64,000 nucleotides of DNA from a virus (lineage: Duplodnaviria > Caudoviricetes). Where the stretch lies: the IMG/VR virus record IMGVR_UViG_3300021959_007005; one strand, written 5' to 3'. Below the pieces are notes generated by a model, which worked only from the letters and a program-made list of their open reading frames with translations, was not told the origin of the DNA and ran no database searches. Each line of letters opens with the position of its first letter. Position 1 is the stretch's first letter. This document shows positions 9,552 to 57,274 of the stretch, one piece after another. The position numbers and the translations under genes were made by a program.

Positions 9552-9577
9552 ATGCGGCGAGGATAACTTCGCCGCAT
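9552..9577. terminator. Hairpin, probable terminator
   Basis: ATGCGGCGA/TCGCCGCAT 9-bp inverted repeat after the stop codon. Confidence 0.6.
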
Positions 9578-9587
9578 AAATATTAAC

Positions 9588-10325
9588 ATGGCTTATAGAG
9601 ATGATTTAATTAAAGAGATAGAACTACGTTTAGGTGGGCAAATGGTAGATGTGGAATTAGATCCTGAACACTACGATTTAGCTATGAATAAGAGTTTTGA
9701 AAAGTATAGACAGCGTAGTGAAAATGCTATTGAAGAAACATTTATTCCACTGCAAGTTATTAAAGATGTAGCTGAGTATACTTTAGCATCAGACATTATT
9801 GAAGTAAAAGATATTTACAGATATGCTACCGGCACAAGTTCAACTAGCAGTGGTGGTATTGAGCCATTTGAGAGCGCATACTTAAATAATTTTTTACTCA
9901 ATAGTGGTAGAGCAGGCGGTATGGCAACATATGATGCTTTAGCGCAACACCGAGAAGCATTAGGACGTATGTTTGGTCAAGAAATTATGTTTACTTGGAA
10001 TACTGTTAATAAAAAATTACTACTTCATCGTAAAATTAAATCTTCGGATGAAATATTTTTACACGTATATAAGCAACGTGGCGACGAAGAGATATTACAA
10101 GATAGTTATGCATCGCCTTGGATTAAGGAATATGCTTTAGCACAGGCCAAACTAATGTTAGCAGAAGCTCGTGGAAAATTTAACACAGTAGCTGGACCAC
10201 AGGGAGGTACATCAATGAATGCAGACGCACTTAGAACTGATGCGTTTACAAGCATTGATAAACTAGAGGAAGACTTAAAATTCTATGCTGAAGGCAGTGC
10301 AGGTTTAGGATTTATTATAGGCTAA
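9588..10325 (+). CDS. Neck protein (T4 gp13-like)
   Basis: LRLGGQMVDVELDPEHY and WIKEYALAQAKLMLAEARGKF motifs; TAAATA at 9577-9582. Confidence 0.7.
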   Translation: MAYRDDLIKEIELRLGGQMVDVELDPEHYDLAMNKSFEKYRQRSENAIEETFIPLQVIKDVAEYTLASDIIEVKDIYRYATGTSSTSSGGIEPFESAYLNNFLLNSGRAGGMATYDALAQHREALGRMFGQEIMFTWNTVNKKLLLHRKIKSSDEIFLHVYKQRGDEEILQDSYASPWIKEYALAQAKLMLAEARGKFNTVAGPQGGTSMNADALRTDAFTSIDKLEEDLKFYAEGSAGLGFIIG

Positions 10326-15793: not shown

Positions 15794-15804
15794 ATAAATA
15801 CAAC

Positions 15805-16506
15805 ATGGAAGATGATATTATATTAGCAGAGCTCAACGACGAAGAGCTTGTACTGCAAATGGGTGACGACCTCTACGATGGACTCAAGGAAGAAATTGAA
15901 GAAGGTACTAATATTCTATTAGAACGTGGATGGGAACCATATCGGGTATTAACAGAATCTTTAGTTGCTGGTATGACTATTGTGGGCATAGACTTCCGTG
16001 ATGGTATATTGTTTGTGCCTGAAGTGCTACTAGCCGCAAACGCAATGAAAGGTGGTATGGCAATACTCAAACCATTGCTGGCTGAAACAGGTGCACCACA
16101 AGTTGGCAAGATGGTTATTGGCACAGTCAAAGGTGACATACACGACATTGGTAAAAACCTAGTAGGTATGATGATGGAAGGCGCCGGCTTTGAAGTTGTT
16201 GACTTAGGTATCAACAACTCAGTTGATGCATACCTCGATGCAATAGACGAACATGAGCCAGACATATTAGGAATGAGTGCATTGCTTACAACTACTATGC
16301 CTTATATGAAAGTTGTTATTGATACAATGACTGAGAAAGGTATACGTGACAACTATACAGTATTAGTTGGAGGAGCTCCTTTAAATGAAGAGTTCGGTAA
16401 AGCAATAGGTGCTGATGCTTACTGTCGAGATGCAGCCGTAGCAGTAGAAACTGCCAAAGTCTTTATGGATAGAAAACATAATCAACAAAACCTAGTTAGA
16501 AACTAG
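15805..16506 (+). CDS. Stand-alone cobalamin-binding (corrinoid) protein; cap plus B12-binding domains of a split methionine synthase/methyltransferase
   Basis: FVPEVLLAANAMK cap motif; GTVKGDIHDIGKNLV (DxHxxG base-off His-on motif), GMSALLTTT, VGGAP. Confidence 0.95.
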   Translation: MEDDIILAELNDEELVLQMGDDLYDGLKEEIEEGTNILLERGWEPYRVLTESLVAGMTIVGIDFRDGILFVPEVLLAANAMKGGMAILKPLLAETGAPQVGKMVIGTVKGDIHDIGKNLVGMMMEGAGFEVVDLGINNSVDAYLDAIDEHEPDILGMSALLTTTMPYMKVVIDTMTEKGIRDNYTVLVGGAPLNEEFGKAIGADAYCRDAAVAVETAKVFMDRKHNQQNLVRN

Positions 16507-27214: not shown

Positions 27215-28078
27215 ATGGGTAAACTATGGATCTTTGGTGATAGTTTCACAAACGCACCATTAGAAAAAAGAATGTTAGTAAATGACTTGGTGTTTACAGA
27301 AGAAAGTAAAAAAGACTTTTCAATGACTTGGCAATCTTTATTATGTCAAAAACTTGGATTGTCTGAAATCTGTAATCACGGTATGCCAGGGATAGGATTA
27401 GATTATATTCAATGGAGATATGTTCAAGAAAGAACCGATATTGATAAAGAAAATGACGTTATTATAATTGGACACACAATGCCTGCTCGTAGATGGTTTA
27501 TACAAAAATCGCCAGAGCTTAGTAACTTTATTAATTTTATCAAAACAGATAGCACACTAAACATAGAATATCTTAAAAAAATGACATTACGTCATGATCA
27601 TGAAACAAGACAAAAGTCTCTTTATCAAGCAGAAGCGGCTAGGCAATATGTTATTAATATAGCTGATCCAGTAATGGAGGAATTGTACGGAGTATCTGTA
27701 TTAGCGTATTTTAATATGCAACAGCATGAGGGGTATCAAATAATTAATATCCCAATTTATGAAAATAGTGAAGTAACTAAATGGAATAATAATTTTAATT
27801 CAATTGGAAATTTAAATTCAGTTAGTGCTAATGAATGGCAATCAGAAAAAAGAGATGAACAAAGTCTTTGGACAGCATTTATGGATATTTGCGGTGGAGC
27901 TGACGGCAGGGTTAACCATCTAATAATGGATAACCATACTATACTAGCTGATAAATTATTTAAAACCATAACAGAAAATGAAACTTTAGACTTGACAACA
28001 GGGTTTATTTCTAATATAGTTAATGCAACAAGTTACGACAGTAAATATGATGTTTATAAAATGAAACAGGTCCCTTAG
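27215..28078 (+). CDS. SGNH/GDSL hydrolase-like protein
   Basis: IFGDSF block I, NHGMPGIG block II, NHL..NH near the C-terminus; stop codon lies inside tRNA-Arg. Confidence 0.6.
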   Translation: MGKLWIFGDSFTNAPLEKRMLVNDLVFTEESKKDFSMTWQSLLCQKLGLSEICNHGMPGIGLDYIQWRYVQERTDIDKENDVIIIGHTMPARRWFIQKSPELSNFINFIKTDSTLNIEYLKKMTLRHDHETRQKSLYQAEAARQYVINIADPVMEELYGVSVLAYFNMQQHEGYQIINIPIYENSEVTKWNNNFNSIGNLNSVSANEWQSEKRDEQSLWTAFMDICGGADGRVNHLIMDNHTILADKLFKTITENETLDLTTGFISNIVNATSYDSKYDVYKMKQVP

Positions 28079-28145
28079 CTCAGCTGGATAGAGCAAGTGC
28101 CTTCTAAGCACTAGGTCAGAGGTTCGAATCCTCTAGGGTCCGCCA
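28069..28145 (+). tRNA. tRNA-Arg(UCU)
   Basis: Cloverleaf; anticodon arm AGTGC-CTTCTAA-GCACT; GGTTCGAATCC; encoded CCA; U3:U70 mismatch. Confidence 0.93.
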
Positions 28146-28153
28146 GAATATGT

Positions 28154-28230
28154 ACTCCTCTAGCTCAATTGGTTAGAGCAGAACGCTCATAACGTTTTGG
28201 TTACAGGTTCGAGTCCTGTGGGGAGTACCA
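28154..28230 (+). tRNA. tRNA with CAU anticodon (Ile2-lysidine type or elongator Met)
   Basis: ACTCCTC/GGGGAGT acceptor stem, CTCATAA loop, encoded CCA; paired 1-72 so not initiator. Confidence 0.9.
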
Positions 28231-28235
28231 ATTAT

Positions 28236-28309
28236 AAGGGTGTGGTGAAATGGTATCACGCTGGTCTCCAAAACCAGAAGCAGGAGTTCGATTCTCCTCA
28301 CCTTTGCCA
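28236..28309 (+). tRNA. tRNA-Trp(CCA)
   Basis: CTGGT-CTCCAAA-ACCAG arm, G73, encoded CCA. Confidence 0.93.
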
Positions 28310-28318
28310 AAGTTTATG

Positions 28319-28490
28319 GTGCAGAGAACACCGCAGGAATAAACTGATAAGAGTAAACTGCAACGTTCTTTGTACAGTAGGAAAATCGTCGGAAGACTAG
28401 ATAGTTAAAATCTATGCATAGTCATATCTAGCTTCGACAGGCGTTGGAAATTAATAGGAGTAATTACCTAGTGACCTTCCTGAATCCTAC
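28319..28490 (+). ncRNA. Candidate structured RNA of unknown class inside the tRNA array
   Basis: Stems 28319-29/28365-75, 28377-82/28485-90, 28397-403/28425-31 and TAGG/CCTA; no convincing ORF. Confidence 0.5.
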
Positions 28491-28499
28491 AAGTGTTAA

Positions 28500-28589
28500 G
28501 GTGAGGTGGCTGAGTGGCCGAAAGCGCCGGATTACTAATCCGGAGAACGTGCAAGCGTTCCGTGGGTTCGAATCCCACCCTCACTGCCA
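28500..28589 (+). tRNA. tRNA-Ser(ACU), type II with long variable arm
   Basis: CCGGA-TTACTAA-TCCGG anticodon arm, GAACG/CGTTC variable arm, G73, encoded CCA. Confidence 0.92.
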
Positions 28590-28592
28590 GAT

Positions 28593-28676
28593 GCTCGCAT
28601 GATGGAATGGTAGACATAACAGACTTAAAATCTGTGGCCGTAAGGCGTCCCGGTTCGAGTCCGGGTGCGAGTACCA
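28593..28676 (+). tRNA. tRNA-Leu(UAA)
   Basis: ACAGA-CTTAAAA-TCTGT arm, long variable arm, A73, encoded CCA. Confidence 0.95.
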
Positions 28677-28701
28677 AATTAAACCACGGATAAGTATTTT
28701 T

Positions 28702-28776
28702 ATGAAAACTTGTCCAGATTGTAAAACAGAATTAGGTCATAACGATTTTTGTCCTAATTGCAGAGTAAAACGATAA
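28702..28776 (+). CDS. 24-aa zinc-ribbon microprotein
   Basis: MKTCPDCKTELGHNDFCPNCRVKR; TAAGTA promoter-like motif just upstream. Confidence 0.55.
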   Translation: MKTCPDCKTELGHNDFCPNCRVKR

Positions 28777-28777
28777 C

Positions 28778-28853
28778 GCCGCAATAGCTCAGTTGGTAGA
28801 GCAACTGATTTGTAATCAGTAGGTCCCGAGTTCGAATCTTGGTTGCGGCACCA
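28778..28853 (+). tRNA. tRNA-Thr(UGU)
   Basis: GCCGCAA/TTGCGGC acceptor stem, ACTGA-TTTGTAA-TCAGT arm, encoded CCA. Confidence 0.95.
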
Positions 28854-40816: not shown

Positions 40817-41833
40817 ATGGAAGTATTAACTTTTTTAAAGCAACAGATACCGTCTGGCTGGAAACAAACTCCTAGTGGGTGGATAAGTGGCAACTGTACC
40901 ATGTGTAATAAACGTGGGCATAGTCCAGATAAGCGCAAACGTGGCGGTATTATATTCAGTGAAGATAAGTTTAGCTATAATTGTTTTAACTGTGGCTTTA
41001 AAACTGGCTGGAGTGTTGGGTCACGTATTGGTGATAAACTTGCTGAATTACTACAAACATTTGGTACAGACATGGCTCAGATTCAGCGTGTTAACTTTGA
41101 AATACTTAAACAGGAAAAAGAATCAGATATAGCTGGACAATTTTTAAATACACAAAAAGAAAAAGTTGTTTGTCTAGATTGGCAGTTAAAAGATTTGCCC
41201 ATGGATGCAGTTCGTATTGGTGAGGTTGATGTCGCTAAGTTAAATGATGATAAGTTAGATAAATTAACCCGAGCATGCACTTATCTAGTAGAACGTGGCC
41301 TGGATCATTATGAACATTGGTATTGGTCTCCACATATGCATTTTGCAAGTAGAGTAATTTTACCATTTTATTATAAAGGAAAGATAGTAGGATACACAGC
41401 AAGATGGTGTGGGAACGATCGACCAGATAAAATGCCAAAATACTATAACCAAATGCCTAGTAATTTTGTATATAATTTGGATGAGCAAGAAAAACATCAA
41501 TATGTTATTGTAACAGAAGGACAACTTGATGCACTTCAAGTTGGCGGAGTTGCGCTAGCTGGAAACACACCTAATGACACGCAATGCGCTATTATTAATC
41601 AATTAGGTAAACAAGTTGTGTTGTTGCCAGATTTTGACGCTGCTGGTAAAGAAACAATTGAAATAGCAATTAAACACGGCTGGGCTGTAAGTTTTCCTCC
41701 CTGGGAAGATGTTAAAGATGCATGTGATGCAGTAAACAAATATGGAAGATTATTCACAGTTAGGAGTGTATTAGAAAGTGTCGAGACAAGTAGCACGAAG
41801 ATTAAGATCTTGGCAAAGTCAAGATGCAAATAG
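40817..41833 (+). CDS. DNA primase (gp61-like)
   Basis: CTMC..RGG..YNCFNCG zinc finger; TOPRIM VTEGQLDA and PDFD.AG. Confidence 0.92.
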   Translation: MEVLTFLKQQIPSGWKQTPSGWISGNCTMCNKRGHSPDKRKRGGIIFSEDKFSYNCFNCGFKTGWSVGSRIGDKLAELLQTFGTDMAQIQRVNFEILKQEKESDIAGQFLNTQKEKVVCLDWQLKDLPMDAVRIGEVDVAKLNDDKLDKLTRACTYLVERGLDHYEHWYWSPHMHFASRVILPFYYKGKIVGYTARWCGNDRPDKMPKYYNQMPSNFVYNLDEQEKHQYVIVTEGQLDALQVGGVALAGNTPNDTQCAIINQLGKQVVLLPDFDAAGKETIEIAIKHGWAVSFPPWEDVKDACDAVNKYGRLFTVRSVLESVETSSTKIKILAKSRCK

Positions 41834-42083
41834 TATAGAGTATTTAGATATGAAACATGTTAGTGCGTACACTGATTTACAAAGTTGTTGGACTAAATAT
41901 TTTGCTTGGTTACCAAAGCGTAGCAATGGTAACGACAAGTTTATTTGGTTGACATCTTACTACGAATACGCTATAACTATGGATATGAATGGCGCAGTGC
42001 CAATTAAAGGCACCGCTTGGCGGATGATCTATACTCGGGAAGAATACATCACAAAGAAGTTGCAAGGAGATATGAATGAGTGA
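41778..42083 (+). CDS. Hypothetical protein (true start uncertain)
   Basis: ORF track; W..FAWLP...K.IWL..YY motif. Confidence 0.5.
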   Translation: MSRQVARRLRSWQSQDANSIEYLDMKHVSAYTDLQSCWTKYFAWLPKRSNGNDKFIWLTSYYEYAITMDMNGAVPIKGTAWRMIYTREEYITKKLQGDMNE

Positions 42084-43470
42084 AGATTACAGCGCAGACC
42101 TACAACAGTTATACTTGGAGTTCTTATTGGCTGACAAGGATCTGTTTGTGCGGTGTAATGCTATCTTAGAAAGCAGTTACTTTGACAGACAATTCAGAGA
42201 CACAGTAGATTTTATACAAAAACATGCAGATGAATACAACGATGTTCCCATGCTAGAGCAAGTTAAAGGCGTAGCTGGTGTTGAAATATCTGATGTGCGA
42301 GACAAACTAACCACAGAACATAAAAATTGGTTTATGGATAACTTTGAACAGTTCTGTAGACACAAAGCGTTGGAAGCAGCAATTCTAAAAAGTGCTGATA
42401 TGTTAGAGAACAAAGAGTATGGTACAGTAGAAGGCATCATCAAAGCGGCAACAGAGATTGGACTTGCTAAGAACTTTGGTACAAACTATTGGGATGATCC
42501 TGCAGGACGCATTCAAAGCATCAAAGACAACAGAGGACAGAATAGTAGTGGCTGGGAGACATTTGATAGAGTATTGTATGGTGGATTTAATCCAGGCGAA
42601 TTAAACATCTTTGCAGGTGGTAGTGGTAGTGGTAAGAGTTTGTTTATGCAGAACTTAGCACTAAACTGGGCGTTGCAAGGTAAAAACGTTGTGTACATCA
42701 GTTTAGAACTTAGTGAAGAACTGTGTGCTATGAGATTGGATGCTATGCTTACAGGCATGAGCACCAAAGACGTAATGAAGAATAGTAGCGATGTTGAGTT
42801 ACAAGTTAAGATGGCCAGTAAGAAAGCAGGTAAACTACAAGTAATACAAATGAAGAATGGTACTACTGTTAACGACATCAAAGCATACATGAGAGAATAT
42901 CAGATACAGCACAACTTGCATGTTGATGCACTACTGGTTGACTATTTGGATCTTATGATGCCAGTTACAGTTAAAGTTAATCCAAGCGATCAATTTATTA
43001 AAGATAAATTTGTTAGTGAAGAATTGCGCAATTTAGCAACTGAGCTGGGCATATTATTTGTAACTGCATCACAGTTAAACCGTGGTGCTGTTGATGAGAT
43101 TGAATTTGATCATAGCCATATTGCTGGAGGTATTAGTAAGATCAATACAGCAGATAACTTAATTGGTATCTTTAGTAGCAGGCCAATGCGAGAGCGTGGT
43201 AGAGTACAAATACAATTTATGAAAACACGTAGTAGTAGTGGAGTTGGTAGTAAACTAGATTTATCGTTTAATATTGATAGTTTACGGATACAGGATTTAG
43301 ATGAAAGTGAACGTGATGATCCAAATAGTGACACTACAAGCATATATCAAAAATTAAAAACAAAATCAACTATTGAAGCAGGGGAAAGCGTAACAGAAAA
43401 TAATATGACAGCTGATCCACAAATAAATCCAACTGACAGACTTAAAAGTTTATTAAGAAAGAGCGAGTAA
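42076..43470 (+). CDS. Replicative DnaB-like helicase (gp41-like)
   Basis: GGSGSGKS, ISLELSE, VDYLDL, TASQLNR, QFMKTR. Confidence 0.95.
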   Translation: MSEDYSADLQQLYLEFLLADKDLFVRCNAILESSYFDRQFRDTVDFIQKHADEYNDVPMLEQVKGVAGVEISDVRDKLTTEHKNWFMDNFEQFCRHKALEAAILKSADMLENKEYGTVEGIIKAATEIGLAKNFGTNYWDDPAGRIQSIKDNRGQNSSGWETFDRVLYGGFNPGELNIFAGGSGSGKSLFMQNLALNWALQGKNVVYISLELSEELCAMRLDAMLTGMSTKDVMKNSSDVELQVKMASKKAGKLQVIQMKNGTTVNDIKAYMREYQIQHNLHVDALLVDYLDLMMPVTVKVNPSDQFIKDKFVSEELRNLATELGILFVTASQLNRGAVDEIEFDHSHIAGGISKINTADNLIGIFSSRPMRERGRVQIQFMKTRSSSGVGSKLDLSFNIDSLRIQDLDESERDDPNSDTTSIYQKLKTKSTIEAGESVTENNMTADPQINPTDRLKSLLRKSE

Positions 43471-43471
43471 T

Positions 43472-43873
43472 ATGAGATTGATCAGCAACACTGAACTAGA
43501 TTTACTTAATAATGATCCAGTAAGACCTCATATTAATAAAATAGACATAGGTAAACAAGTATATGTATTAGATGACTTGACAGCCGTAATATGTATATGC
43601 TACTGTACGGGCATACCAACTAATGAGTTAGAGTTGGAAGAATATCGTGACGATACTGGAACGGTTGCAGTAGCATATACCGTATGGAGTAGTAAAAAAG
43701 GTGCAGGTAGAACCATCGTTAATAATTTATTGGGTATAGTAAAGGAAAAACATGTAAAAAAATTGGTTACATTAAGCCCATTAACAGATATGGCGGAACA
43801 TTTTCATATTAGTAATGGTGCAAAGTTAATTGGCAAAAGTGATACTTGCCAAAACTTTGAATACGCAGTTTAG
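43472..43873 (+). CDS. GNAT-like hypothetical protein
   Basis: YTVWSSKKGAGR acetyl-CoA-loop-like motif, TLSP..A..FH..NGA. Confidence 0.5.
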   Translation: MRLISNTELDLLNNDPVRPHINKIDIGKQVYVLDDLTAVICICYCTGIPTNELELEEYRDDTGTVAVAYTVWSSKKGAGRTIVNNLLGIVKEKHVKKLVTLSPLTDMAEHFHISNGAKLIGKSDTCQNFEYAV

Positions 43874-44043
43874 TGTTGAAGCAAAGGTGCAGTGTACCTT
43901 ATCTTTTATATATGTGGTCCTGAACTATTAACCTGTAGTAGGCCAATTTAAGCGTTGGTGAATTAATCTTATCGTTAACGGATCCTATGTTCTAATACCA
44001 GTTTCTGCAATTGCCATAAGTGCTAATCACCAATGCCTCAACT
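43872..44043 (-). ncRNA. Candidate late-expressed structured ncRNA, about 170 nt
   Basis: Minus-strand TAAATA at 44054-44049; terminal stem GTTGAGGCA/TGCTTCAAC; further stems TTGGTGA/TCACCAA, CTTAT/ATAAG, ATTGGCCT/AGGTTAAT and AAGGT/ACCTT; G-U pairs favour the minus strand; no ORF. Confidence 0.65.
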
Positions 44044-44081
44044 AAACTTATTTAACTTAACTTTAACTAAATAGTGTTACA

Positions 44082-44321
44082 ATGAAAAGAAAAACTAGAT
44101 CTTTACTGGAAGAAATTAATTCTATGTCACCCAAGCGTGACAAGAAGCAAATTGTTGAGAGTAATGCACAACAAGTAATTGGTACAGCAATACATCTTAT
44201 TGATTTAATAAATGAATCGTTCGACGAAGAAACAGCTAACGACCTTAACAAACGTTTAATTAACAGTATTAGGGCAAAAGACCCACGTAAGTTTCAACGA
44301 GGTATTGGTAAAGTATTATGA
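44082..44321 (+). CDS. Hypothetical late protein
   Basis: TAAATA at 44068, ATG 8 nt downstream. Confidence 0.65.
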   Translation: MKRKTRSLLEEINSMSPKRDKKQIVESNAQQVIGTAIHLIDLINESFDEETANDLNKRLINSIRAKDPRKFQRGIGKVL

Positions 44322-45151
44322 AAGTATCTGATATAATTGTTGGCGAAAAGTCACGTAAAATACGTAACAAGCGCCAAGTAAGAATTAATGGAAATAGTTT
44401 ACTGGCTAAAAGTGGTAAACATGCTATTAAACGTCTTAGTGAAAAAAATGCAATACCTGGTTCACTAGAAGTACCACATGAAATTATGCCAAGTTTGGTA
44501 AAAATAATTAACAGCGTTCTAGCAAAAACCAATAGCACAGGCATACCCATTGGAAGTGGCGCAACTCCTATACCCGGAGAGACCAGTGGTGATATAGACA
44601 TAATTGTTGATGTTAATGATCTTAAAAAGCACTTTAAGATGGAAGACCAAACTGATGGAGTTATTAGAAAAAAGCTAAAACAATTATTTGATTTAGCTGG
44701 ATTTCAAACAGTACAAACTGGTGTTATTGTTCATGTTGGACTTAACGTAAAAGGTAACTTATATCAAGCAGATGTTATGGTTGTACCTAATGCAGCCAAT
44801 GCGGCACAATTTCATACACACAATATTCCAAAAGGCAGTCCTTTCAAAGGTACTAACAAGCATCAGCTGCTGAGTATTATTGCTAGAGAAAAAGGTATGC
44901 TGTGGAGTAACTATGTTGGATTGTTTAAACGTTTACCAAACGGTAAAAAAGATCCCAACGGATTTATTACCAGTGATATTAATAAAATTGCACAATTATT
45001 ATTGGGTCCAAACGCAAAACCACTTGACATGGGGAGCGTAGAAGCTATAGTATCAGCATTAGGCGATGCAGGACAAGACCTGTTAGCAAACATTAGAGCA
45101 AATGATCCTAACTGGAAAGAAAAAACTAATGAGACTGCAATCAATCCTTAA
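44318..45151 (+). CDS. Pol-beta-superfamily nucleotidyltransferase
   Basis: IGSG..SGDIDIIVD (hGS..DxD motif) and a third Asp in YQADVMVV. Confidence 0.8.
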   Translation: MKVSDIIVGEKSRKIRNKRQVRINGNSLLAKSGKHAIKRLSEKNAIPGSLEVPHEIMPSLVKIINSVLAKTNSTGIPIGSGATPIPGETSGDIDIIVDVNDLKKHFKMEDQTDGVIRKKLKQLFDLAGFQTVQTGVIVHVGLNVKGNLYQADVMVVPNAANAAQFHTHNIPKGSPFKGTNKHQLLSIIAREKGMLWSNYVGLFKRLPNGKKDPNGFITSDINKIAQLLLGPNAKPLDMGSVEAIVSALGDAGQDLLANIRANDPNWKEKTNETAINP

Positions 45152-46211
45152 AGAATCTACCTCTAAAGGTAGAGAGTATAATCATTTAGAAGACCTTGTA
45201 TTTTTTGAAGGATCCAGTGGTGCATTTAAAGCAGCACAGTTACTAACACGTCTTGGACAGGATACTGGTGATGTTAGTATTAAATGGGATGGCAGTCCAA
45301 CTATATTTTGGGGACGTCAACCAAATGGTACATTTGTATTAGTAGGCAAAAATGGTTGGGGTAAGCGTATGAGTACCACACCAGAAGATTTATCAGATTA
45401 TATTTTAAATACTGGAAAAGGTGAAGATTGGCGTAAAGAATTTGCAGCAGGCATGAGTTCTCTTTTTGCTATTATGGAAGATAGTACTCCTGCTGATATG
45501 CGTGGATATGTGTATGGAGATCTATTGTTCCATCCAGGAAAGCCAGCAGTTAAAAATAAAGATAGTATAACATTTAAGCCTAATAATGTAACATATACTG
45601 TTGACAGTCAAAGCCCATTGGGACAAAAAATGTCTAAAAGTAGTGTTTGTGTAGTAGTACATACTTGGCATGATGCATTTGGTGACAAGGTTGGAACACC
45701 AATTAAAGCACCAAAAAAACTTAATAGTGAGTTAGTAACAGTATTAGGACAAACATATGTTACCCAAACTCCTGCTATAGATACTAGTGCAGTTGAAAAT
45801 ATTGTAAACACAACACGAAACAATAGCACTAAGATTGATAATTGGCTAGCACCAGAACAAGGATTGAGTAGGAAAGATCAAATACTTTATACCTATGTTA
45901 ATCAAATGACTAAGATGGGCAAACTAGACCAGATACGTAGTGGATTTTTTGATTGGCTTAAACAAAGTAAAGTAAGTCCAGGCCAACAAACTAAGTTAAT
46001 GTCTAATGACAGTCAAGGACTTGATATTATATTAGATTTAGTTGCACAAATACAGACAGCAAAAAATAATATAATTGATCAATTAGATGCTACTAGCACT
46101 GATGTTAAAGCAGTGACTGGTAATAAGCCAGGCGGCGAAGGATATGTAGTTACTAGGGATAAAATTAAGCTAGTACCTAGAGATAGATGGACACCAGTTC
46201 AAGTTGGATAA
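45129..46211 (+). CDS. RNA-ligase/covalent nucleotidyltransferase-like protein (probably DUF6267-type)
   Basis: Start re-called to ATG 45129; NHLED; motif I KWDG, YVYGDLL, motif IV GEGYVV, motif V KLV. Confidence 0.7.
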   Translation: MRLQSILKESTSKGREYNHLEDLVFFEGSSGAFKAAQLLTRLGQDTGDVSIKWDGSPTIFWGRQPNGTFVLVGKNGWGKRMSTTPEDLSDYILNTGKGEDWRKEFAAGMSSLFAIMEDSTPADMRGYVYGDLLFHPGKPAVKNKDSITFKPNNVTYTVDSQSPLGQKMSKSSVCVVVHTWHDAFGDKVGTPIKAPKKLNSELVTVLGQTYVTQTPAIDTSAVENIVNTTRNNSTKIDNWLAPEQGLSRKDQILYTYVNQMTKMGKLDQIRSGFFDWLKQSKVSPGQQTKLMSNDSQGLDIILDLVAQIQTAKNNIIDQLDATSTDVKAVTGNKPGGEGYVVTRDKIKLVPRDRWTPVQVG

Positions 46212-47862: not shown

Positions 47863-47887
47863 TAATCTTTCCCACATAAATAGTATT

Positions 47888-48181
47888 ATGAATTTAAATG
47901 AATTACATAATGACACTGTGATTGAAGCACAACTTGTTTGGGCGAGGAAAGGTAATCAACTTACTCGTAAATACAGATGCACAGTAGGACAACGTGCTGG
48001 TAGGCTAGTTTCTAAGCCTGGTCAGTGTAGCGCACCTATTGATATCAAAAAAAGAATGACATTAAAAAGAACTAAAGCTAAGTTTGGAAAGAAAATGGCA
48101 CGTAAAGCAGCCAAGACAAAAAAGTTTAATCCAGCAAGCAAAGCACTGAAACGTTTAAACAAACCAGCGAGAAGAAAATGA
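47888..48181 (+). CDS. Basic late protein
   Basis: TAAATA at 47877; K/R-rich. Confidence 0.65.
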   Translation: MNLNELHNDTVIEAQLVWARKGNQLTRKYRCTVGQRAGRLVSKPGQCSAPIDIKKRMTLKRTKAKFGKKMARKAAKTKKFNPASKALKRLNKPARRK

Positions 48182-56963: not shown

Positions 56964-56974
56964 TAAATACTGGT

Positions 56975-57274
56975 ATGACAAATTATGTACACCGAAATAA
57001 TGACGCACGAGCTTGTGGTGCTAGAACAGTAGCTACAAGTCCAAATGTTAGAGTAAATTACGAGCCAATAAGCACACAAGGTAACCCTAATACCCATGGT
57101 GGCGGTGCATTAAAAGCCACGGAAACATTAGGAAAAGTTAGGGCAAATAACATTTCAGTTATAATCCTTAATGATCCAGCTAGTCCAGACTCATTATGTC
57201 CGACGGCTGGCGGCGCTCATTGTGGACCAAAAGCATCTAGCGCAAGTCCAAATGTTAGAGCAGGGAGTGGTTAA
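56975..57274 (+). CDS. PAAR-like spike tip protein (T4 gp5.4-like)
   Basis: HRNND.R.CGA..V.VN..H..; C/H zinc ligands; TAAATA at 56964. Confidence 0.8.
   Translation: MTNYVHRNNDARACGARTVATSPNVRVNYEPISTQGNPNTHGGGALKATETLGKVRANNISVIILNDPASPDSLCPTAGGAHCGPKASSASPNVRAGSG

Follow-up and report, generated by a model that had tools for sequence, protein, structure and literature searches.

The locus lies in an uncultured marine myophage and was analysed within a stretch of 64,000 nucleotides, referred to here as the window. The genes around it are all carried on the plus strand and are listed with the other features of the region in Table 1: a primase-like gene, a DnaB/gp41-type helicase gene and a 133-aa ORF lie upstream of a gap, and a gene encoding a 79-aa protein lies downstream of it, followed by genes for proteins of 277 aa and 369 aa. 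The gap had been described in a first-pass annotation as free of ORFs, and no ORF of at least 60 aa was found inside it, only two mechanical ORFs that overlap its edges. The 133-aa protein, which the same annotation called GNAT-like, has no match in Pfam, NCBIfam, PHROGs or PDB sequence searches. In those four resources the 369-aa protein was identified as a DUF6267 match, and the 277-aa protein exhibited only a faint match to a pol-beta palm (E = 0.14). ARAGORN identified six tRNAs in the window.

Table 1. Genes, helices, hairpins and predicted promoters at the locus (window positions; helix strands as RNA).
Feature	Position	Strand	Remarks
tRNA array	28069-28853		far from the RNA gene
Primase-like gene	40817-41833	+	
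DnaB/gp41-type helicase gene	42076-43470	+	
133-aa ORF	43472-43873	+	no family match
Terminator-like hairpin	43830-43852	-	22 nt beyond P1; window only
Gap housing the RNA gene	43874-44081		
Structured ncRNA gene, 168-nt "mini" variant	43875-44042	-	covariance model and covariation
P1 3' strand, UGCUUCAAC	43875-43883	-	covariation
Terminator-like hairpin and T-run after upstream gene stop	43884-43900	+	overlaps P2/P3 3' strands
P2 3' strand, CACC	43886-43889	-	
P3 3' strand, AUAAGGU	43896-43902	-	
P4 3' strand	43915-43925	-	GUUC (43925-43922) and ACCA (43918-43915)
P6 hairpin, AUUGGCCU-ACUAC-AGGUUAAU	43927-43947	-	covariation
P5 hairpin, CGUU/AACG	43953-43980	-	20-nt loop with near-invariant UAAGA
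P4 5' strand	43989-44000	-	UGGU (44000-43997) and GAAC (43992-43989); long-range with 43915-43925
P3 5' strand, GC-A-CUUAU	44016-44023	-	pairs with AUAAGGU at 43896-43902
P2 5' strand, GGUG	44028-44031	-	pairs with CACC at 43886-43889
P1 5' strand, GUUGAGGCA	44034-44042	-	pairs with 43875-43883
T4-type late promoter core of the RNA gene, TAAATA	44049-44054	-	predicted activity
Divergent late promoter core of the 79-aa virion-protein gene, (C)TAAATA	44068-44073	+	back to back with RNA promoter
79-aa gene	44082-44321	+	PHROG "virion structural protein", phrog_11854
277-aa gene, then 369-aa DUF6267 gene		+	downstream of the 79-aa gene

The nearest cultured relatives of the helicase are about 49% identical and come from jumbo phages such as PA5oct. 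Locus-bearing IMG/VR contigs of 67-74 kb are rated only 20-23% complete, so the source phage is probably a jumbo phage as well. In Pseudomonas phage PA5oct the primase and helicase genes are followed, after a spacer of 40 nt, by the gene for a virion structural protein of 79 aa, which shares 37% identity (E = 3e-21) with the 79-aa protein of the window. This shared order, with its short spacer and homologous 79-aa protein, indicates that the RNA element described here is an insertion into an old gene junction. In relatives L075-L079, whose helicase is 64% identical, the element is absent and the slot is filled instead by a minus-strand ORF of ~110 aa that has a strong ribosome-binding site. 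L275-L276 are likewise of the RNA-lacking type. The locus lies where modules meet, and what occupies it varies. The genes for the 79-aa and 369-aa proteins are also present in relatives that lack the RNA, and this, together with the identity of the 79-aa protein as a virion-protein homolog and the faintness of the palm match in the 277-aa protein, weakens the earlier idea that the RNA is a substrate for the neighbouring enzymes.

Homologs of the element were sought in two steps. A scan of IMG/VR with the helicase gave 80 loci, and the gap sequence was present in 135 of 192 loci as judged by blastn and nhmmer, representing 54 distinct sequences. The 79-aa protein was then used against JGI, Tara and ENA metagenome contigs, which gave 80 further loci, and a covariance model built on a trimmed alignment detected the element in 77 of these. 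The comparative set contains ~70 distinct homologs from marine viral and metagenome contigs. The element occupies an equivalent position in all 135 of the first loci: 15-34 nt separate its 5' end from the start of the oppositely oriented 79-aa gene, and its 3' end borders on the stop codon of the 133-aa gene or, in loci without that gene, on the helicase stop codon. The element occurs as a single copy in the window, where covariance model R1 scores 134.7 bits on the minus strand and 14.4 bits on the plus strand. As to cultured phages, a full-length relative had no blastn match among 50,697 phage records, and Pelagibacter phage Mosig gave no match to the covariance model. The carriers, which have been sampled by Tara and in many coastal and open-ocean metagenomes, form a single clade of uncultured T4-like myophages from the sea, which are probably jumbo phages.

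Read on the minus strand, the gap encodes a Y-shaped non-coding RNA whose shape is kept in more than 200 related metagenomic loci. The distance from P1 to P1 is 206-224 nt in most homologs, about 185 nt in one lineage, and 165-168 nt in the window and its nearest relatives; lineages other than the mini variant span 184-224 nt. The two ends of the RNA are joined by P1, a helix of 9 bp in which 99.7% of cells are paired, and P2 often runs on from P1, where a UU/UU mismatch turns paired; P2 itself appears as AACG/CGUU in L235 and as GGUA/UACC in L274. The 3' partner of P3 was preferred over an internal copy of AUAAG because the internal copy has uncompensated changes in L273 and L238. A large internal loop separates P3 from P4, a probable long-range helix in which the UGGU/ACCA of the window compares with the consensus forms UGAU/AUCA and UUAU/AUAA, and in which GAAC/GUUC has as its counterparts UCUAUAC/GUAUAGA (GUAU/AUAC) in L061, GAAGC/GUUUC in L060 and AAAC/GUUU in L113 and L238. 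In the family form of P5, CCAUU/AAUGG closes a loop of ~20 nt containing UAAGA, and the change from A-U to G-C in the window is compensatory. P6 is present in all homologs and covaries strongly. In relatives it encloses a further 20-95 nt, made up of hairpin P7 and one to three copies of YAGGC, and in the window this interior has shrunk to a 5-nt loop. By its sequence the window copy is a mini-variant that lacks the P6 interior, and the existence of such natural variants indicates that the interior, which varies in the family, is dispensable. The overall fold is an interrupted stalk of ~30 bp leading to a three-way junction with arms P5 and P6, closed by the probable helix P4.

The statistical evidence for this fold was obtained with a core model of 38 pairs (P1, P2, P3, P5, P6 and P7), which was derived by eye from divergent members and then counted. 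In a plain MAFFT alignment (A4), 96.5% of cells are paired and 16 of the 38 pairs are changed on both sides, against 6.3 in shuffles. The corresponding figures are 98.2% and 19 of 38 pairs, against 7.0, in an alignment fitted with the covariance model (A6), and 96.5% and 25 of 38 pairs, against 15.6 +/- 1.7, in the most diverse set (A8); model-fitted alignments favor the model by construction and the MAFFT count is the unbiased one. In none of the three alignments was the observed value matched by any of 500 shuffles, and when the partners were slid, pairing fell to 31-46% from the 96-98% of the model, the most diverse set accounting for values of 32-44%. On the diverse set, changes on both sides were counted in 7 of 9 pairs of P1 (5 of 9 at the lowest across alignments), all 4 pairs of P2, 3 of 5 of P5, 8 of 9 of P6 and 3 of 4 of P7. 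As judged from these sequence comparisons, the pairing of the ends in P1 and the extension of the stalk by P2 are shown. P3 is unproven, since its core never varies and none of its 7 pairs changes on both sides. P4 contains indels and is only 79.6% paired by a fixed-column count; it appears in 18 of 37 constrained folds, and a local UCCU/AGGA hairpin competes with it in some lineages. A reading of this region as a local hairpin was dropped in favor of the long-range helix. Ranking by single-column covariance was uninformative, as it was dominated by U/C columns opposite an invariant G. Folding energy, which had been put forward as a check against shuffled sequences, gave a borderline result: z was -1.93 and -1.85 for the minus strand of the window, 7-8 of 200 shuffles doing no worse, and -0.83 for a full-length relative. 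The plus strand folds equally well or better by energy. Energy by itself makes a marginal case, and it is the comparison of homologs that decides the matter.

The first-pass annotation had proposed a discrete structured element on the minus strand, closed by a terminal stem (GTTGAGGCA with TGCTTCAAC), and the stem is present and corresponds to P1. The proposed inner helices fared unequally. All of them (TTGGTGA/TCACCAA, CTTAT/ATAAG, ATTGGCCT/AGGTTAAT and the hairpin AAGGT-ACACTGC-ACCTT) exist in the window where they had been placed, and ATTGGCCT/AGGTTAAT is P6. In the other three, only 1 of 17 pairs is changed on both sides; they fit most sequences and fail in the divergent L059, L061 and L235, in all of which P2 and P3 hold, in one case with a triple compensation (AACG/CGUU). 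The partner of the 5' segment UUGGUG...CUUAU is the 3' end, through P2 and P3, and not an internal stretch. The minimum free energy fold of the window uses the three helices, which may be alternative conformers, and as they and P2/P3 are mutually exclusive a conformational switch is possible. The three palindromes that had been pointed out in the apical region (GCAATTGC, GGATCC and CGTTAACG) are present in the window and are not conserved in relatives.

The strand on which the element folds can be read from its mismatches. In the MAFFT alignment, 168 G-U cells were counted against 4 A-C cells, and in a more diverse set 118 against 10; reading the same model on the plus strand lowers the paired cells from 96.5% to 88.3%. 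The great excess of G-U over A-C indicates that the minus strand is the folded one, which bears out and extends the bias to that strand noticed earlier. That the element is a real structured RNA of the minus strand is very probable.

The 5' end of P1 is preceded on the minus strand by the TAAATA core of a predicted T4-type late promoter, as had been observed for the window, and this arrangement was found in 29 of 29 representative lineages, at a spacing of 5 nt in most and 6 nt in some, including the window, while the flanking sequence differs. As in T4-type late units, a TATAAATA-like element thus lies ~6 nt before the putative start, unaccompanied by a -35 element, and no sigma-70-like site was found on the minus strand at the locus. 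In 10 of the 29 lineages the full T4 consensus TATAAATA precedes P1, there within the palindrome TATTTATAAATA, which presents the consensus on each strand so that the two promoters overlap. The distance between the RNA promoter and the divergent promoter of the 79-aa gene varies among lineages. Upstream of strong late genes the window has NATAAATA, from which the RNA promoter differs in the window itself and in most relatives. The window contains fewer copies of TAAATA than expected (73 against 118), and they often stand 4-8 nt ahead of ATG codons of plus-strand genes, most commonly 5 nt, a spacing shared by several late genes. The occurrence of the same 5-nt spacing before ATG and before P1 suggests that transcripts start at the sixth base after TAAATA, in which case many late mRNAs would be leaderless and the RNA would begin exactly at P1. 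Control of the RNA by a late promoter appears likely.

Beyond P1, the terminator-like hairpin on the minus strand of the window has no conserved counterpart in relatives, and a discrete 3' end of the RNA is assumed. On the plus strand, the terminator-like hairpin that follows the stop of the upstream gene is broken by A-C mismatches in L063-type sequences, L059 and L061, and may do double duty in some phages. In public RNA libraries that contain the phage, available as assembled, strandless Logan contigs, coverage of the locus is low and patchy, and some contigs span both promoters, as DNA carry-over or read-through would. Transcription of the element from the minus strand is predicted from the sequence features given above.

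Several identities were considered for the element. None of the 4227 models of Rfam 15 matched the gap within window positions 43000-45000 at E <= 10, and the full-length relatives L021, L007, L065 and L030 had no Rfam match at E <= 1, in keeping with the earlier remark that the RNA belongs to no recognized family. ARAGORN found no tRNA or tmRNA here and no CCA follows P1; the 3' end had been called loosely tRNA-like, and this description found no support, as AAGGT/ACCTT shows no compensatory change and the GUUC that might suggest a T-loop and T-stem pairs with GAAC in P4 and covaries. A small protein gene was rejected on the grounds that, even between close relatives, the ORFs do not agree in frame, start or length, and neither strand has a conserved one; no ORF of at least 25 aa lies in the element in the window or in L002, and alignments A1 and A5 contain gaps of 1-2 columns between relatives within it. 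A number of tertiary or mimicry motifs were also discarded, for lack of compensation as judged by eye: pairing of the P5 loop with the P6 interior through GAGC/GCUC, pairing of the P4-P5 junction with the P5 loop through GAU/AUC, a T-loop at GUUCAGAAUC, and Shine-Dalgarno or anti-Shine-Dalgarno mimicry by UAAGG, UAAGAG and CUUAU. A GAAA-tetraloop receptor was dropped as well, UAUGG being present and CCUAAG absent.

With this element a new family joins a known general kind of RNA, the phage-encoded structured RNAs. Fremin, Bhatt and Kyrpides (2023; PMC10690425) reported 8,495 candidate structured phage RNAs from IMG/VR, and as described there these candidates resemble the present element in being conserved, intergenic and covarying, with no Rfam family or assigned role. 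The text of that article mentions no helicase-associated or late-promoter RNA, and the element may already be among its candidates; what has been added here to the level of description in that text is the strand, the promoter, a full helix map and a natural mini-variant.

Among described RNAs, the phi29 pRNA (Phage_pRNA) is similar in size and in having its 5' and 3' ends paired as a stalk that leads to a three-way junction with two arms, an arrangement to which the P1-P4 stalk and the arms P5 and P6 would correspond. It differs in that no similarity to it was detected by sequence or covariance model and in that the carrier is T4-like, not phi29-like. By inspection, the ACUAC of the P6 loop in the window has no complement in the P5 loop of the kind that a pRNA-type loop-loop match would call for, and the GAGC/GCUC loop match of relatives is uncompensated in L063-type sequences and missing from the window. 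The element shares with 6S RNA a closing stem formed by its ends and a large internal loop, here between P3 and P4 (about 18 nt against about 15 nt), and a role as a protein decoy is conceivable; unlike 6S RNA, it has a distal three-way junction in place of a hairpin, the sequence of its internal loop is not a conserved promoter mimic, and it has no Rfam 6S match. Bacterial and phage Y RNAs (YrlA) likewise combine a terminal stem made from both ends with a multi-branched module, but the element has no tRNA-like T or D arm, its GUUC being paired in P4, and no match to them in Rfam. Phage T4 makes two small stable RNAs with no assigned function, RNAs C and D (species 1 and 2). These are located inside the tRNA cluster and are processed from a tRNA precursor, whereas the present element is remote from the tRNA array and has a predicted late promoter of its own.

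The main rival to a self-contained RNA gene is that the structure is the leader at the 5' end of a long antisense transcript, made late and running into the 133-aa, helicase and primase genes, which would silence early or middle genes by antisense pairing or transcriptional collision and would leave the leader only a stabilizing part. Late antisense transcripts across early regions are known in T4, in 135 of 135 loci the RNA gene and the replication genes point towards each other, and the missing conservation of a minus-strand terminator after P1 would fit a transcript that continues. However, stabilization alone would not require six conserved helices, invariant loops and a three-way junction spread over ~215 nt; moreover P1 pairs the 5' end with a site abutting the stop of the neighbouring gene in every lineage, which is the behavior of a discrete unit, and in the window P1 is followed closely by the terminator-like hairpin. 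We regard an antisense leader as unlikely.

Two further readings place the function elsewhere. The element could act on the plus strand or as DNA, whether as the 3' UTR or terminator of the helicase operon, an insulator between early and late genes, or a replication or recombination site; its position at a module boundary and variable slot would suit such a role, as would the plus-strand hairpin with its T-run directly after the upstream stop codon and the folding energy of that strand. This is very unlikely in view of the G-U/A-C asymmetry and the reduced plus-strand pairing described above; in addition, the hairpin is broken in some lineages and a terminator would account for only ~25 of the ~215 conserved bases. 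Folding of single-stranded DNA with G-T pairs is possible but leaves the promoter motif at its fixed 5-6 nt unexplained. Alternatively, the RNA could be associated with the virion or its assembly in the manner of phi29 pRNA, docking on a head, portal or packaging component, and here the pRNA topology and the late promoter back to back with the virion-protein operon are suggestive. Against this stand the absence of a pRNA match in Rfam, the lack in the window of P5-loop/P6-loop complementarity from which a ring might be built, and the occurrence of close relatives of the virion gene without the RNA; T4-type terminases are not known to need an RNA. We consider an assembly RNA of this kind highly improbable.

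On balance we favor, at somewhat better than even odds, the explanation that the element is a late, minus-strand non-coding RNA gene whose product may act in trans with proteins. The gene would have been inserted between the primase-helicase module and the late virion-protein operon, and the late transcription machinery is expected to initiate on the first base of P1, the sixth or seventh counted from the end of (TA)TAAATA. A start placed at this base implies that the RNA is made late and divergently from the virion operon. Closure of its ends in P1 might shield the RNA from exonucleases, and it may then serve in trans, late in infection, as a protein-binding scaffold or decoy. Its recognition surface would consist of the invariant unpaired bases, namely UAAGA in the P5 loop, GA at the P4-P5 junction, and, in the large loop that separates P3 from P4, RGC and AUA. 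The trans-acting, protein-binding role is our best guess, adopted as a prior and tentative, at somewhat less than an even chance. A more specific and quite improbable proposal is that the RNA is a subunit or decoy of an unrecognized late RNP in marine jumbo T4-like phages. If this were true, the RNA might, for example, dock on a virion or assembly component, in which case a pRNA-like assembly RNA would for the first time be seen beyond the phi29 group; or it might use its internal loop and P5 loop to catch a host factor, for instance the RNA polymerase holoenzyme or a nuclease.

In phages it is rare for a structured RNA of such a size to covary in most of its helices, and few such RNAs have an assigned role: pRNA, tRNAs, tmRNA and some riboswitches. 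The present element offers a widespread carrier clade, a late-promoter motif of its own, a position at the border of replication and virion genes, and natural deletion variants. Together, the variants of 165-168, about 185 and 206-224 nt define a minimal core consisting of the stalk, P4, P5 with its loop, and a bare P6, which provides a ready design for biochemistry as well as a covariance model for annotating the element. Should the RNA turn out to be no more than a leader or boundary element, it would remain a clearly delimited marker of this phage clade; as a true RNP component or decoy it would bring an RNA-based mechanism into the late program of T4-like phages.

The genes for the helicase and the 79-aa protein flank a slot that is a variable cassette site and is divergently transcribed. 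In L075, one of the related loci, a minus-strand ORF of ~110 aa lies in this slot in place of the RNA, and the same ORF replaces the RNA in L076-L079. A strong GGAG ribosome-binding site precedes the ~110-aa ORF throughout L075-L079, and the helicase of these relatives shows 64% identity. The RNA promoter and the promoter of the 79-aa gene vary in their spacing. They are merged into a 12-bp palindrome, TATTTATAAATA, just upstream of the terminal helix P1 in lineages L237, L113, L235, L252, L261, L262, L249, L254, L264 and L258, and this palindrome gives TATAAATA when read on either strand. Other lineages, and the window too, have 1 to ~14 nt between these promoter motifs. It would be hard for two polymerases to sit on the merged promoters at the same time.

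On the helicase side of the RNA, a 133-aa ORF was found in 114 of the 135 loci that carry the RNA; it is absent from L063-type lineages, where the RNA adjoins the helicase stop codon. Searches of Pfam, PHROGs, NCBIfam and PDB sequences gave no match for the protein of this ORF, which the first-pass annotation called GNAT-like. The plus-strand terminator-like hairpin that follows the ORF shares sequence with the minus-strand RNA, in the 3' strands of its stalk helices P2 and P3, and this stretch may serve both uses. Within the RNA itself, relatives carry one to three copies of the motif YAGGC(U/A) in unpaired parts of the interior of the arm helix P6, with the copy number differing among lineages, and the window mini-variant retains at most one degenerate copy, UUGGCCUA. 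These copies may represent repeated binding sites.

Features in the window and in related loci
Feature	Sequence	Coordinates	Strand
133-aa ORF	window	43472-43873	
Terminator-like hairpin and T-run, directly after the 133-aa gene stop	window	43884-43900	plus
79-aa gene and two following genes	window	44082-46211	
PA5oct region compared with these genes	L197	3957-6002	
~110-aa ORF in the slot	L075	3118-3462	minus
YAGGC(U/A) in P6 interior (examples)	L037	2135-2350	
	L063	2126-2347	
	L059	1747-1965	
	L070	2560-2769	
TAAATA near ATG (examples)	window	9577-9588	
	window	15795-15805	
	window	47877-47888	
	window	56964-56975	
	window	44068-44082	
	window	8286-8275	minus

TAAATA is rarer than expected over the whole window (73 observed vs 118 expected), and in many window genes the ATG lies only 4-8 nt downstream of this motif, mostly in the form NATAAATA. 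In T4, transcription starts 6-7 nt past the late motif; if the same spacing holds here, the late mRNAs of these genes would be leaderless or nearly so.

The 79-aa protein is a homologue of the PA5oct virion structural protein gp259. The next two genes in PA5oct encode structural proteins confirmed by mass spectrometry. BLASTP detected no significant similarity between these and the 277-aa and 369-aa proteins of the window. The earlier labels of the latter pair, "NTase" and "ligase", have as their basis one faint pol-beta palm match (E = 0.14) and DUF6267. CheckV-type completeness was 20-23% for two IMG/VR contigs with the locus, G001 (74 kb) and G003 (67 kb), which at ~70 kb predicts a genome of roughly 300-370 kb. 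The clade helicase is closest to those of PA5oct-like and Atu_ph07-like phages, in agreement with the marine clade bearing the RNA probably being a clade of jumbo phages.
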